NCBI RefSeq assembly: GCF_044647545.1
Contig: NZ_CP172818.1
Length of the DNA stretch: 64,000 nt
Source of the DNA: Escherichia coli
Lineage (GTDB): Bacteria; Pseudomonadota; Gammaproteobacteria; Enterobacterales; Enterobacteriaceae
Strand: one strand, 5' to 3'
The stretch's first letter is position 1. Each line of letters opens with the position of its first letter. This document shows, piece after piece, positions 3,266 to 60,548 of this stretch. The position numbers were made by a program, and so were the translations under genes. A model generated the notes under the pieces. It was not told where the DNA came from, made no database searches, and worked only from the letters and a program-made list of their open reading frames with translations.

Positions 3266-3291
3266 GCCGGATGCGCAGCATCGCATCCGGC
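3266..3291. terminator. REP-like GC hairpin between convergent fetB and ybbN
   Basis: Inverted repeat GCCGGATGCG/CGCATCCGGC with 6-nt loop. Confidence 0.4.
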
Positions 3292-5662: not shown

Positions 5663-6312
5663 CTTAAGAAGTCCGTCGGTCAGGGGGAGCATGAACTCTC
5701 CATCCTCACCGGAGTTGAGCTGGTTGTCAAACGTGGCGAGACCATCGCGCTGGTGGGCGAGTCGGGATCGGGTAAGTCAACCTTGCTGGCGATCCTCGCC
5801 GGGCTGGATGACGGCAGCAGTGGCGAAGTAAATCTGGTGGGACAACCGCTACATAATATGGACGAAGAAGCGCGGGCAAAGTTACGCGCGAAGCACGTAG
5901 GTTTTGTTTTTCAGTCATTTATGTTAATTCCTACCCTTAACGCGCTGGAAAACGTCGAGCTTCCGGCGCTGCTGCGCGGTGAAAGTAGCGTGGAAAGTCG
6001 TAACGGGGCAAAAGCGTTGCTCGAACAGTTAGGACTGGGTAAACGTCTGGATCATCTTCCGGCACAGCTTTCCGGCGGCGAACAGCAACGAGTGGCGCTG
6101 GCGCGAGCTTTTAATGGTCGGCCTGATGTGCTGTTTGCCGACGAACCCACCGGCAATCTTGACCGCCAGACGGGCGATAAAATTGCCGACCTGCTGTTTT
6201 CCCTCAACCGTGAACATGGCACCACGTTGATTATGGTGACCCACGACCTGCAACTGGCGGCACGCTGCGACCGCTGCTTACGGCTGGTGAACGGGCAGTT
6301 GCAGGAGGAAGC

Positions 6313-6316
<4 letters not shown>
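5630..6316 (+). CDS. ybbA: ABC transporter ATP-binding protein YbbA
   Basis: Walker A GESGSGKST and LSGGEQQR motifs; divergent from tesA. Confidence 0.85.
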
Positions 6317-10182
<3,866 letters not shown>

Positions 10183-21976: not shown

Positions 21977-22090
21977 CTATTACCTTTAAAGCGGATGCGA
22001 TTTATATCGCATATTGACTACAAAAAAAGCCACGGAATAAACCGTGGCAAAATCCAACATAGCTAAAAATAATCAGGCGAGTGGTATGAC

Positions 22091-28456: not shown

Positions 28457-29272
28457 ATGACGATCATCCATCCTCTGCTTGCCAGCCGTAGCGCACCGAA
28501 TTATCGCCAGTCCTGGCGGTTAGCGGGCGTGTGGCGGCGGGCGATTAACCTGATGACGGAAAGCGGCGAACTGTTAACGCTGCATCGTCAGGGTAGTGGT
28601 TTCGGCCCCGGAGGATGGGTGCTTCGCCGCGCGCAATTCGATGCGTTATGCGGTGGATTATGCGGCAATGAACGACCACAGGTTGTGGTTCAAGGGATTC
28701 GCCTCGGGCGTTTCACGGTTAAACAGCCACAGCGTTATTGTTTGCTGCGTATTACGCCGCCTGCGCATCCTCAACCGCTTGCAGCGGCATGGATGCAACG
28801 CGCGGAGGAAACCGGGCTTTTCGGGCCGCTGGCGTTGGCGGCAAGCGATCCGCTGCCTGCTGAATTACGCCAGTTTCGTCACTGTTTTCAGGCCGCGCTC
28901 AATGGCGTTAAGACCGACTGGCGGCACTGGCTGGGTAAAGGCCCCGGATTAACGCCAAGTCATGATGACACGCTGAGCGGAATGCTGCTGGCGGCCTGGT
29001 ATTATGGCGCTTTAGATGCGCGCTCCGGTCGCCCGTTTTTTGCCTGTTCCGACAATCTTCAACTCGTTACCACAGCGGTGAGCGTTAATTATTTACGTTA
29101 TGCCGCGCAAGGATATTTCGCCTCGCCACTCCTGCACTTTGTTCATGCTCTGAGTTGCCCGAAACGTACCGCAGCGGCGATCGATTCGCTGCTGGCGCTG
29201 GGGCATACGTCAGGGGCCGATACGCTGCTGGGGTTCTGGCTTGGCCAACAATTATTACAAGGAAAACCATGA
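28457..29272 (+). CDS. ylbF: DUF2877 protein YlbF
   Basis: 271 aa ORF, stop overlaps ybcF start. Confidence 0.8.
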
Positions 29273-30162
29273 AAACACTGGTTGTGGCTCTTGGGGGCAA
29301 CGCCTTACTCCAGCGCGGTGAGGCGCTGACGGCAAAAAATCAATATCGCAATATTGCCAGTGCTGTGCCCGCGCTGGCGCGCCTGGCCCGTTCTTATCGT
29401 CTGGCGATTGTTCACGGCAACGGGCCGCAGGTGGGGCTGCTGGCGTTACAGAATCTGGCGTGGAAAGAGGTAGAACCGTATCCGCTGGATGTACTGGTGG
29501 CGGAAAGCCAGGGGATGATTGGCTATATGCTGGCGCAGAGCTTGAGCGCACAGCCGCAGATGCCGCCTGTCACGACGGTGCTGACGCGCATTGAGGTTTC
29601 GCCTGATGATCCGGCGTTTTTGCAGCCAGAGAAGTTTATTGGTCCGGTTTATCAGCCAGAAGAACAAGAGGCACTGGAAGCGGCTTACGGCTGGCAGATG
29701 AAACGTGATGGTAAATATTTACGCCGGGTGGTGGCGTCTCCGCAACCGCGTAAAATTCTCGACAGCGAAGCCATCGAGTTGTTGCTCAAAGAGGGGCATG
29801 TGGTGATTTGCAGTGGCGGCGGCGGTGTGCCTGTGACGAAAGACGGGGTAGGGAGTGAAGCAGTGATTGATAAAGATCTCGCCGCTGCGTTGCTCGCCGA
29901 GCAGATTAATGCCGATGGACTGGTGATCCTCACCGATGCTGATGCGGTATATGAAAACTGGGGAACGCCGCAGCAACGTGCCATTCGCCATGCCACACCG
30001 GATGAGTTAGCGCCATTTGCCAAAGCCGATGGTTCGATGGGGCCGAAGGTAACGGCGGTGAGTGGCTATGTCAGAAGCCGTGGTAAACCTGCGTGGATTG
30101 GGGCGTTATCGCGGATTGAAGAGACGCTGGCGGGCGAAGCGGGGACCTGTATTTCGCTGTAG
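29269..30162 (+). CDS. ybcF: Carbamate kinase-like protein
   Basis: Amino-acid kinase fold ([10 protein letters not shown] ... [11 protein letters not shown]); start chosen at MKTLVV. Confidence 0.85.
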
Positions 30163-30169
30163 TGATGGG

Positions 30170-30390
30170 CACCAGGCAATTGGCACATCTAGCCTGATGC
30201 GATGCTGGCGCGTCTTATCAGGTCTACAGGCGGTGTCGGAACGGTAGGCCGGATAAGGCGTTCACGCCGCATCCGGCAATCGGCACACCATGCCTGATGC
30301 GATGCTGGCGCATCTTATCAGGCCTACAGTCGGTGTTGGAACGGTAGGCCGGATAAGGCGTTCACGCCGCATGCGGCAAGAAAATGAGCA
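30170..30390. repeat. Tandem REP/BIME cluster (two ~120 bp units)
   Basis: Two near-identical copies containing GCCTGATGCGATGCTGGCGC...TAGGCCGGATAAGGCGTTCACGCCGCATCCGGCA. Confidence 0.75.
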
Positions 30391-30394
30391 TCAA

Positions 30395-31462
30395 TTAACT
30401 GAACTTGCTCTGCGCCCAAATCACGCCGCTAGCATATTCTGGCGGCAGCAGCGGGATTAAGGCTTCCAGCGTCGCGGTCAGACGCGATGTGTCGCTGTCG
30501 GTCAAATTTAAATGCCCCACTTTACGCCCCGGACGGACTTCTTTGTCGTACCAGTGCAGATGCACCAGCGGCAGTTTCAGCCAGTCATAATTCACATCGC
30601 TACCAATCAGGTTGATCATCACCGACGGACTATTCACCACCGGTTGTGGTAACGGCAGATCGGTAATCGCCCGCAGATGCAGCTCAAACTGGCTGATGCT
30701 GGCACCGTTTTGCGTCCAGTGCCCACTGTTATGCACACGCGGAGCCAGTTCGTTGATCAGCAGACCTTGTGGGGTGACAAAACACTCCATCGCCATCACG
30801 CCCACATAGCCCAGCTCCTGCATAATCGCCGACAGCATCTCTTCGGCCTGCGCCTGCTGCTGCGCGTTGGCCTGCGGGAAAGCGACGCTGGTGCGCAAAA
30901 TACCGTCCTGATGCAGGTTATGCGTCAGCGGATAAAACACGGTACTACCATCAAAGCCGCGCGCGCCAACCAGCGACACTTCACCAGAGAAGTTTATGCC
31001 CTGCTCGACAATACATTCGCCGTAGCATTCAGTCGGTAACTGTTCGGTTTCATCGGCGCGTAAACGCCATTGACCGCGTCCGTCATAGCCACCAGTGCGA
31101 CGCTTAACAATCGCCAGCTCACCTAAACGCTTAAACACCGCAGGCCACTCGCTGCGATCGGCAAGTAACTGCCACGGTGCGGTCGGCAGGTGGAGCTTAT
31201 CGAAAAGCTGCTTCTGAGTCAGACGGTCAGCAATAATCGGGAACACATCGCGGTTCACAAAGGCCGGATGGCGCGCCAGCTCGCGGGTTAATGCGGTTTC
31301 CGGCCAGCGTTCGATCTCAGCGGTAATCACACTTTGTTGAAAAGGCACCGCCGCCGGTTCAGCGTCCAGCCCGACTGGCCAGACAGCAATGCCTAACGGT
31401 TCGCCTGCCTGACGCAGCATACGGCCTAACTGCCCGTTCCCGAGGACGCAAACCTGTTTCAT
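30395..31462 (-). CDS. purK: N5-carboxyaminoimidazole ribonucleotide synthase
   Basis: 355 aa ATP-grasp ORF upstream-coupled to purE. Confidence 0.95.
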
Positions 31463-31968: not shown

Positions 31969-32085
31969 GCGTCTTAAAACTCCTGTGGTACACAACTCTC
32001 GGCTTTAGAGGGCACAGAGAATAGCACGGAAAGAGAGCAAGGAAAACGGTTGCGTGGCTGTGAAATCAGCAAAGTTGCGGGTTTT

Positions 32086-43597: not shown

Positions 43598-43674
43598 GCG
43601 CCCTTAGCTCAGTTGGATAGAGCAACGACCTTCTAAGTCGTGGGCCGCAGGTTCGAATCCTGCAGGGCGCGCCA
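43598..43674 (+). tRNA. argU: tRNA-Arg (anticodon UCU)
   Basis: Cloverleaf GCGCCCTTAGCTCAGTTGGATAGAGC...GGTTCGAATCC...GCGCCA; anticodon loop CTTCTAA. Confidence 0.9.
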
Positions 43675-59830: not shown

Positions 59831-60548
59831 CAGGCTGCGGCATTTTGTCCGCGCCGGGCTTCGCTCACTGTTCAGGCCGGAGCCACAGACCGCCGTTGAA
59901 TGGGCGGATGCTAATTACTATCTCCCGAAAGAATCCGCATACCAGGAAGGGCGCTGGGAAACACTGCCCTTTCAGCGGGCCATCATGAATGCGATGGGCA
60001 GCGACTACATCCGTGAGGTGAATGTGGTGAAGTCTGCCCGTGTCGGTTATTCCAAAATGCTGCTGGGTGTTTATGCCTACTTTATAGAGCATAAGCAGCG
60101 CAACACCCTTATTCCAGCTGGCTTCGTGGCTGTTTTCAACAGTGATGAGTCATCGTGGCATCTCGTTGAAGATCATCGGGGTAAAACGGTTTATGACGTA
60201 GCGTCAGGGGACGCGTTATTTATTTCTGAACTCGGTCCGTTACCGGAAAATGTTACCTGGTTATCGCCGGAAGGGGAGTTTCAGAAGTGGAACGGTACAG
60301 CCTGGGTGAAAGATGCAGAAGCAGAAAAACTGTTCCGGATTCGGGAGGCGGAAGAAACAAAAAACAGCCTGATGCAGGTAGCCAGTGAGCATATTGCGCC
60401 ACTTCAGGATGCTGTAGATCTGGAAATCGCAACGGAGGAAGAAACCTCATTGCTGGAAGCCTGGAAAAAATATCGGGTGTTGCTGAACCGTGTTGATACA
60501 TCAACTGCACCTGATATTGAGTGGCCTACGAACCCTGTCAGGGAGTAA
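59805..60548 (+). pseudogene. aaaD: Fusion of terminase large subunit N-terminus (lambda A) to tail fiber assembly C-terminus
   Basis: [19 protein letters not shown]... (A N-term) switches near 60110 to Tfa-like sequence ending [17 protein letters not shown]... Confidence 0.75.

Follow-up and report, generated by a model that had tools for sequence, protein, structure and literature searches.

The 232-bp spacer separating the ybcF and purK genes of Escherichia coli is filled by a repeat array that, judging by its sequence, is a BIME-2 composed of two tandem 100-bp units, each with a Z2 REP joined by a 16-nt linker to an inverted Y REP, which a 14-nt linker follows. We regard as very probable the overall reading that combines this identity with a presumed role as a 3′-UTR hairpin block or gyrase site and with growth by 100-bp steps. 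REPs and BIMEs were already known in the 1980s, and the copy-number polymorphism of BIME-2 between strains has been described since 1997. The array is a known kind of repeat with a known behavior and a textbook structure, it holds nothing new, and its importance is low. The locus does provide an allele series (at least nine spacer classes, strict 100-bp steps, stability within a clone) that could be used to test the proposal of 3′-UTR tuning by REPs, and the array persists without change in a lineage whose canonical rayT site is devoid of the gene. All coordinates refer to the window, that is, the whole 64,000-nucleotide stretch of DNA that was analyzed, which matches E. coli FDAARGOS_497 at 100% identity (NZ_CP033850.1, positions 2865253–2929252).

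Structure and family assignment of the array

A repeat search of the window detected two head-to-tail direct copies (30169–30268 and 30269–30368) spaced by 100 bp and sharing 90% identity, and Tandem Repeats Finder reported positions 30175–30379 with a period of 100, 2.0 copies, 91% matches, no indels and a score of 347. The probability of observing at least 90 matches out of 100 at one offset by chance is ~7e-43. A previous reading of this DNA made from the sequence alone had proposed a tandem duplication of a near-identical REP/BIME unit between the convergent genes ybcF and purK, and had suggested self-alignment as the check. These points are borne out by our analysis, with the exception of the unit length, announced as about 120 bp and found to be exactly 100 bp by both the repeat search and Tandem Repeats Finder. 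The array is wholly extragenic and lies within 30163–30394, between the two stop codons.

The two copies differ at 10 positions (30172, 30174, 30181, 30188, 30190, 30191, 30212, 30223, 30230 and 30237), six of which fall within the first 23 nt, where copy 1 consists of a degenerate border remnant. The register of the repeat search starts at 30169 because this degenerate copy of the Y REP end and linker stands there; the one-unit allele found in other strains carries an intact GCATCCGGCAAT at the corresponding place. Over the 86 positions of the Z2-linker-Y core, the two units show 5 differences. The string GCCTGATGCGATGCTGGCGC occurs at both 30192 and 30292, and the substitution that had been cited as distinguishing the copies, GGTCTACAGG at 30221–30230 versus GGCCTACAGT at 30321–30330, is correct. 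The other strings that had been cited are present where expected, GGCCGGATAAGGCGTTCACGCCGCATCCGGC being located at 30247–30277, except that its counterpart in the second copy ends with CATGCGGC instead of CATCCGGC. This results from a C-to-G change at 30373, which breaks one stem pair of the second Y REP. The parts of the array and its flanking genes are listed in Table 1.

Table 1. Features of the ybcF-purK intergenic region (window coordinates)
Feature	Position	Strand	Basis and remarks
ybcF (carbamate kinase)	29269..30162	+	ORF list; RefSeq annotation of identical NZ_CP033850.1; stop TAG 30160-30162
Left border, degenerate Y REP end plus short linker	30169..30191	.	GCACCAGGCAATTGGCACATCTA versus internal GCATCCGGCAATCGGCACACCAT
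Z2-type REP no. 1, GCCTGATGCGATGCTGGCGCGTCTTATCAGGTCTAC	30192..30227	+	Consensus with 2 mismatches; hairpin in fold; 3′ foot CTAC; stem includes two G.T/G.U wobble pairs
Long linker no. 1, 16 nt, aggcggtgtcggaacg	30228..30243	+	Sequence; by base counts G-rich on + strand, hence C-rich and G-poor on purK-sense strand
Y-type REP no. 1, inverted, GTAGGCCGGATAAGGCGTTCACGCCGCATCCGGC	30244..30277	-	0 mismatches to Y consensus; GTAG foot; 2x2 internal mismatch; hairpin (((((((..((((....))))..)))))))
Short linker, 14 nt, aatcggcacaccat, Y-to-Z2, junction of units 1 and 2	30278..30291	+	Aligns to naRNA4 consensus linker
Z2-type REP no. 2, GCCTGATGCGATGCTGGCGCATCTTATCAGGCCTAC, fully paired	30292..30327	+	Consensus with 2 mismatches; hairpin in fold; pair table
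Long linker no. 2, 16 nt, agtcggtgttggaacg	30328..30343	+	Sequence
Y-type REP no. 2, inverted	30344..30377	-	1 consensus mismatch; G at 30373 weakens stem in fold
Y-linker-Z2 pair matching Rfam RF02564 (naRNA4)	30247..30324	+	83.1 bits versus gathering score 59.5, E = 1e-14
purK, last gene of purEK	30395..31462	-	ORF list and annotation; stop 30395-30397

ybcF is the last gene of the fdrA-ylbE-ylbF-ybcF run and its transcript reads into the repeat, which the purK transcript enters from the opposite side. Two small ORFs lying over the repeat (56 aa, 30290–30460, and 61 aa, 30062–30247) were considered and rejected, as they overlap real genes and are not robust to 100-bp indels.

Compared with the Y, Z1 and Z2 consensus strings, which are corroborated by the units of REP325 and by the Rfam naRNA4 consensus, the four REPs match in the order Z2, Y, Z2, Y with 2, 0, 2 and 1 mismatches, respectively. 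Their orientation alternates, Z2(+), Y(-), Z2(+), Y(-), so CTAC and GTAG face each other over the 16-nt linker. All four carry the GTAG/CTAC foot, and the stem is interrupted by a 1x1 mismatch in the Z2 REPs and by a 2x2 mismatch in the Y REPs. The four units have the features of published REPs, imperfect palindromes of 30–40 nt in which the GTAG/CTAC foot is conserved and the stem holds an internal mismatch, and the array corresponds to the published description of BIME-2 in its z2 and y REPs, their REP/iREP arrangement, their tandem repetition and the differences in unit number among strains at a given locus (Ton-Hoang et al., PMC3333891). That description also includes a short S linker inside the pair and s, l or r motifs outside; the linkers of the array measure 14 and 16 nt, and the shorter one aligns to the linker of naRNA4. 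The same classification of BIME-2 is found in PMC1187871. BIME-1 elements, by comparison, are single copies of Y and Z1 REPs with the long L linker, in which an IHF site is located (PMC3333891). The ybcF-purK array shares with them an intergenic location and REPs in inverse orientation, but it is a tandem array, the best REP matches in the consensus comparison of the spacer are to Z2 with no Z1 REP among them, it has no L linker, and the IHF consensus WATCAANNNNTTR has no match in the spacer. Lacking both a Z1 REP and a linker with an IHF site, the array is therefore not a BIME-1.

The closest point of reference is REP325, the BIME-2 located between yjdM and yjdN of K-12, in which Y and Z2 units are reported to alternate (PMC4550694). 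Both arrays follow a strict 100-bp period (5.8 copies in REP325) and have near-identical Y and Z2 REPs with GTAG/CTAC feet and an internal stem mismatch, an extragenic position in a 3′ UTR, and a strain-variable number of units. They differ in that REP325 contains about 6 units instead of 2 and is found inside a tandem operon rather than between convergent genes. Whole units are 78–82% identical between the two arrays, with differences concentrated in the linkers, which measure 13 and 17 nt in REP325 versus 14 and 16 nt here. When the long linkers are read relative to the Z2-to-Y order, the strand that is C-rich in the ybcF-purK array is the opposite of that in REP325.

The Rfam naRNA4 model was built on REP325. 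Its match to the array (Table 1), in which the short linker is aligned to that of naRNA4, is the sole REP-type Rfam hit within the 64-kb window, and the score on the reverse strand is 59.5 bits. A stringent search of the window for the core motif of REPs yielded only the four REPs of the array and one other match: the exact core GCCGGATGCGATG is also present at 3279–3291 (-), inside the coding sequence of cnoX, probably by chance.

Folding of the spacer gave −105.9 kcal/mol for the + strand (z = −3.6) and −100.5 kcal/mol for the − strand (z = −4.8), and none of the 200 dinucleotide shuffles of either strand folded as well. The four REPs appear in the fold as separate imperfect hairpins. In a shallow alignment of 22 units drawn from six alleles and from REP325, 99.1% of the stem cells contained standard pairs, versus 31–42% when the partners were slid by 1–3 columns. 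One Z2 stem pair is found in the C-G, U.G and U-A states, and all Z2 stem substitutions are wobble-compatible, which suggests, if weakly, that the RNA form is important. Only one pair of the 22-unit alignment was doubly changed, a level of covariation equaled by 79 out of 500 shuffles and thus not significant; it is consequently no independent proof of selection on the structure.

Variation of the spacer and growth of the array

Using as a query 400 nt of ybcF and 400 nt of purK, i.e. the flanks only, we found the locus in 5425 out of 5426 complete E. coli genomes. Spacer lengths were determined for 59 genomes, sampled systematically. The K-12 type of 194 bp was the most frequent (20/59), followed by spacers of 132–138 bp containing one unit (17/59) and of 532–533 bp containing five units (9/59, ST131 included). 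The two-unit type of the window (232–233 bp) was found in 3/59 genomes (~5%) and a three-unit type (332 bp) in 2/59. The remaining spacers measured 204 bp (3/59) or 126 bp (1/59), 152 bp with no REP (2/59), and 119 bp with a single Y REP (2/59). The comparison of copy numbers between E. coli strains that had been proposed alongside the self-alignment thus yields at least nine length classes. A REP-bearing spacer is present in roughly 95% of the sampled genomes, and inspection of the sequences confirmed that arrays of 1, 2, 3 and 5 units stay in strict 100-bp register. In BLAST matches H26–H29, an apparent loss of homology over ybcF was considered as the boundary of a variable region and rejected: it is a joining artefact of five-unit arrays, and ybcF is present.

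Unit 1 of the window is identical to unit 2 of strain 8178 and to units 1 and 4 of strain R6. Since the same unit variants are met repeatedly, both inside one array and in different arrays, the arrays are mosaics of a few unit types, as would be expected from unequal exchange or conversion between units. Among genomes whose flanks are 100% identical to those of the window, one of them named ST648, the spacer measures 232 bp in 60 out of 60. The number of units is therefore stable within this lineage, and the locus displays a lineage-level polymorphism rather than fast switching.

The allele of K-12 MG1655, at the same locus with flanks 96.8% identical and the same types of Z2 and Y REPs, is not a clean tandem duplication. 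Its 194 bp (extract 334–527) contain, in order, a Z2 REP, a truncated Y REP of which only GCCGCATCCGGCA remains, a Z2 REP and a Y REP; the internal deletion has kept the last 13 nt of the first Y REP. The Z2 loop is TTGAC and the long linker, aatgggtaccggatcg, is different. As a result of the deletion no segment of this allele reaches the gathering score of naRNA4, the best one scoring 43.9 bits. The array had been called typical of K-12-like BIMEs, a description that is loose with respect to the K-12 allele itself, given its length, its truncated first Y REP and its score below the naRNA4 threshold; the window does not come from K-12. The RefSeq feature table of K-12 lists no REP feature in the ybcF-purK spacer.

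Other alleles depart further from this organization. The 152-bp allele of PEC1020 (extract 401–552) is devoid of REPs and contains instead a G-rich palindrome, cccctcgcccctgtggggagagggttagggtgaggggg. It is found at full length in ~238 of the 5426 genomes (~4%), and because its central 50 nt also match other loci in other genomes, it belongs to a different small dispersed repeat, which may be boxC-like. In the 119-bp allele of strain 7CC (extract 401–519), the Z2 REP is cut after GCCTGATGCGATGCTGA and followed by unrelated sequence, leaving a single Y REP; this allele is one more independent rearrangement at ybcF-purK. In strain TUM1881 (extract 1–400), the annotation gives ybcF as an N-terminally truncated pseudogene (“amino acid kinase family protein”), so decay of the upstream operon is under way in one lineage at least.

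The array has changed length in whole 100-bp steps, and the simplest route would be for its units to have undergone unequal homologous exchange or slippage during replication. In ancestors endowed with TnpA-REP/RayT, strand exchange by RayT could also have contributed. Like the REPs of REPtrons and REPINs, those of the array possess the GTAG foot, the stem mismatch and C|T sites in the iREPs, the foot and the mismatch being needed for binding of TnpA-REP (PMC3333891). Unlike in a REPtron, in which rayT/tnpA-REP is flanked by BIMEs, no transposase gene is located near the array, and no rayT/tnpA-REP gene is annotated in the window. The rayT gene of K-12 matches 3575 out of 5426 genomes (66%), at one place each, in agreement with its presence in two-thirds of genomes according to Ton-Hoang et al. 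(PMC3333891). At the canonical site between yafL and lfhA, the only locus known for rayT, FDAARGOS_497 has no rayT, no BIME and no hicAB but a 97-bp spacer (extract 8945–9041). This empty state differs from the two states of loss reported by Ton-Hoang et al., namely precise excision leaving BIMEs and replacement by hicAB (PMC3333891). With rayT missing from its canonical site, any contribution of RayT to the array would be historical.

Proposed role and alternative interpretations

By analogy with better-studied REPs, both convergent mRNAs, purEK and fdrA-ybcF, would end in the array or run through it. Its four stable imperfect hairpins would hinder 3′-to-5′ exonucleases and would promote partial, Rho-dependent termination; the upstream message would be stabilized and read-through into the opposing gene limited. 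At the DNA level, the Y REPs would be preferred sites of cleavage by gyrase. Most likely, then, the array would form a bidirectional 3′-UTR hairpin block serving both purEK and fdrA-ybcF; it might also be a gyrase site. This model is consistent with the observations that REP325 is a partly Rho-dependent terminator and a stabilizer of the upstream mRNA, and that a genome-wide correlation links REPs placed between two convergent genes to higher expression of both (bioRxiv 10.64898/2026.03.23.713779). The same study reports that the effects of REPs vary widely, with no general link to mRNA half-life (10.64898/2026.03.23.713779). On the purK-sense strand, one 16-nt linker contains 8 C and 3 G and the other 7 C and 2 G, a composition compatible with a weak Rho-loading segment, to which we give no weight. 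A search of the locus-specific literature and of supplementary data on gyrase and REPs for purK or ybcF returned only unrelated rows of differential expression.

An interpretation to be taken seriously, even if we do not favor it, is that the array is a neutral or selfish leftover, formerly spread by RayT and persisting through drift without having been selected for a function here. The architecture of the spacer varies freely, as illustrated by the 152-bp allele without REP, the 119-bp allele with one REP and the internally deleted allele of K-12, and since alleles with no REP or a single one occur, no particular architecture is required at ybcF-purK. The stem-breaking change in the terminal Y REP points in the same direction, as do the published effects of REPs, which are context-dependent and often nil (10.64898/2026.03.23.713779). 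The prevalence of REP-bearing spacers in the sample, the nearly complete pairing of the stems with mostly wobble-compatible substitutions, and the genome-wide association of REPs between convergent genes with higher expression all speak against pure neutrality, none of them being decisive here.

Alternatively, the array might act primarily on the DNA, as a strong, transcription-independent gyrase site that relieves the positive supercoils generated by convergent transcription of purEK and fdrA-ybcF. We consider this unlikely, though with an appreciable chance of being correct. Gyrase cleavage sites are over-represented in BIME-2, lie mostly in y REPs and increase under rifampicin (PMC6379681), and the array offers two Y REPs between convergent genes. 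Yet only a subset of BIME-2 is cleaved (PMC6379681), the ybcF-purK locus was not found in the supplementary files of that study that were searched, and it is common for alleles to have just one Y REP or to lack Y REPs.

It is very unlikely that the array encodes an RNA of the naRNA4 type, in which a Y-linker-Z2 transcript would bind HU, bridge REP cruciforms and condense the chromosome, as in the model published for REP325 (PMC4550694). Positions 30247–30324 do pass the gathering score, but the Rfam model in effect fits any complete Y-Z2 pair of a BIME-2, so the match speaks for related sequence and says nothing of function. That function is itself in dispute: neither deletion nor overexpression of REP325 changes nucleoid volume, and REP-REP contacts are not detectable (10.64898/2026.03.23.713779). 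In addition, the sub-threshold score of the K-12 allele implies that such a role would not be conserved at ybcF-purK.

Stable GC-rich hairpins just 3′ of two stop codons could also evoke an intrinsic bidirectional terminator or a translational brake that stalls ribosomes near the stop codon, an interpretation that we judge highly improbable. No hairpin followed by a T-run was found on either strand, with 0 terminator-like sites in 29800–30800. Ribosome-stalling REPs lie within 15 nt of the upstream stop codon, according to the passage of PMC12306157 that cites Liang, Rudd and Deutscher 2015, and both gaps exceed this limit, the nearest REP being separated by 29 nt from the stop codon of ybcF (30163–30191) and, from the end of Y REP no. 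2, by 17 nt from that of purK (30378–30394). Finally, while assemblies may collapse or expand short tandem repeats, the chance that the duplication is an assembly artefact or a fortuitous similarity is practically negligible, considering the constant spacer length in 60 out of 60 independent complete genomes with identical flanks and the probability of a match by chance given above.

Beyond the preferred reading of a 3′-UTR hairpin block and possible gyrase site, the number of units (0, 1, 2, 3 or 5, fixed within lineages) might constitute a lineage-specific dial for the stability of the purEK and/or fdrA-ybcF mRNAs, for convergent read-through or for gyrase loading. We view this idea as speculative and rather improbable. 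If it were true, copy-number alleles would alter expression of the purine-biosynthesis or allantoin pathway with coding sequences and promoters unchanged.

Other features of the window

In the segment 43598–64000, a tRNA-Arg gene (43598–43674) has directly after it an integrase gene (intD) and a lambdoid prophage. The prophage genes include exo/bet/gam, an S24 repressor, O/P-like replication genes, emrE, ybcK, rusA, Q, essD/rrrD and nohD. This DLP12-like prophage occupies the argU site and seems to be more complete than its remnant in K-12. It contains a gathering-level Rfam hit to IS009 (227.8 bits, 60307–60505, +). Another gathering-level hit, to the sRNA STnc480 (84.1 bits, 22018–22084, +), is located between glxK and allE. 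Between purE and lpxH, strains 8178 (extract 5890–6219) and R6 (5997–6326) possess an extra annotated 330-bp hypothetical ORF, where the strain of the window (31969–32085) and K-12 have only a 117-bp spacer.
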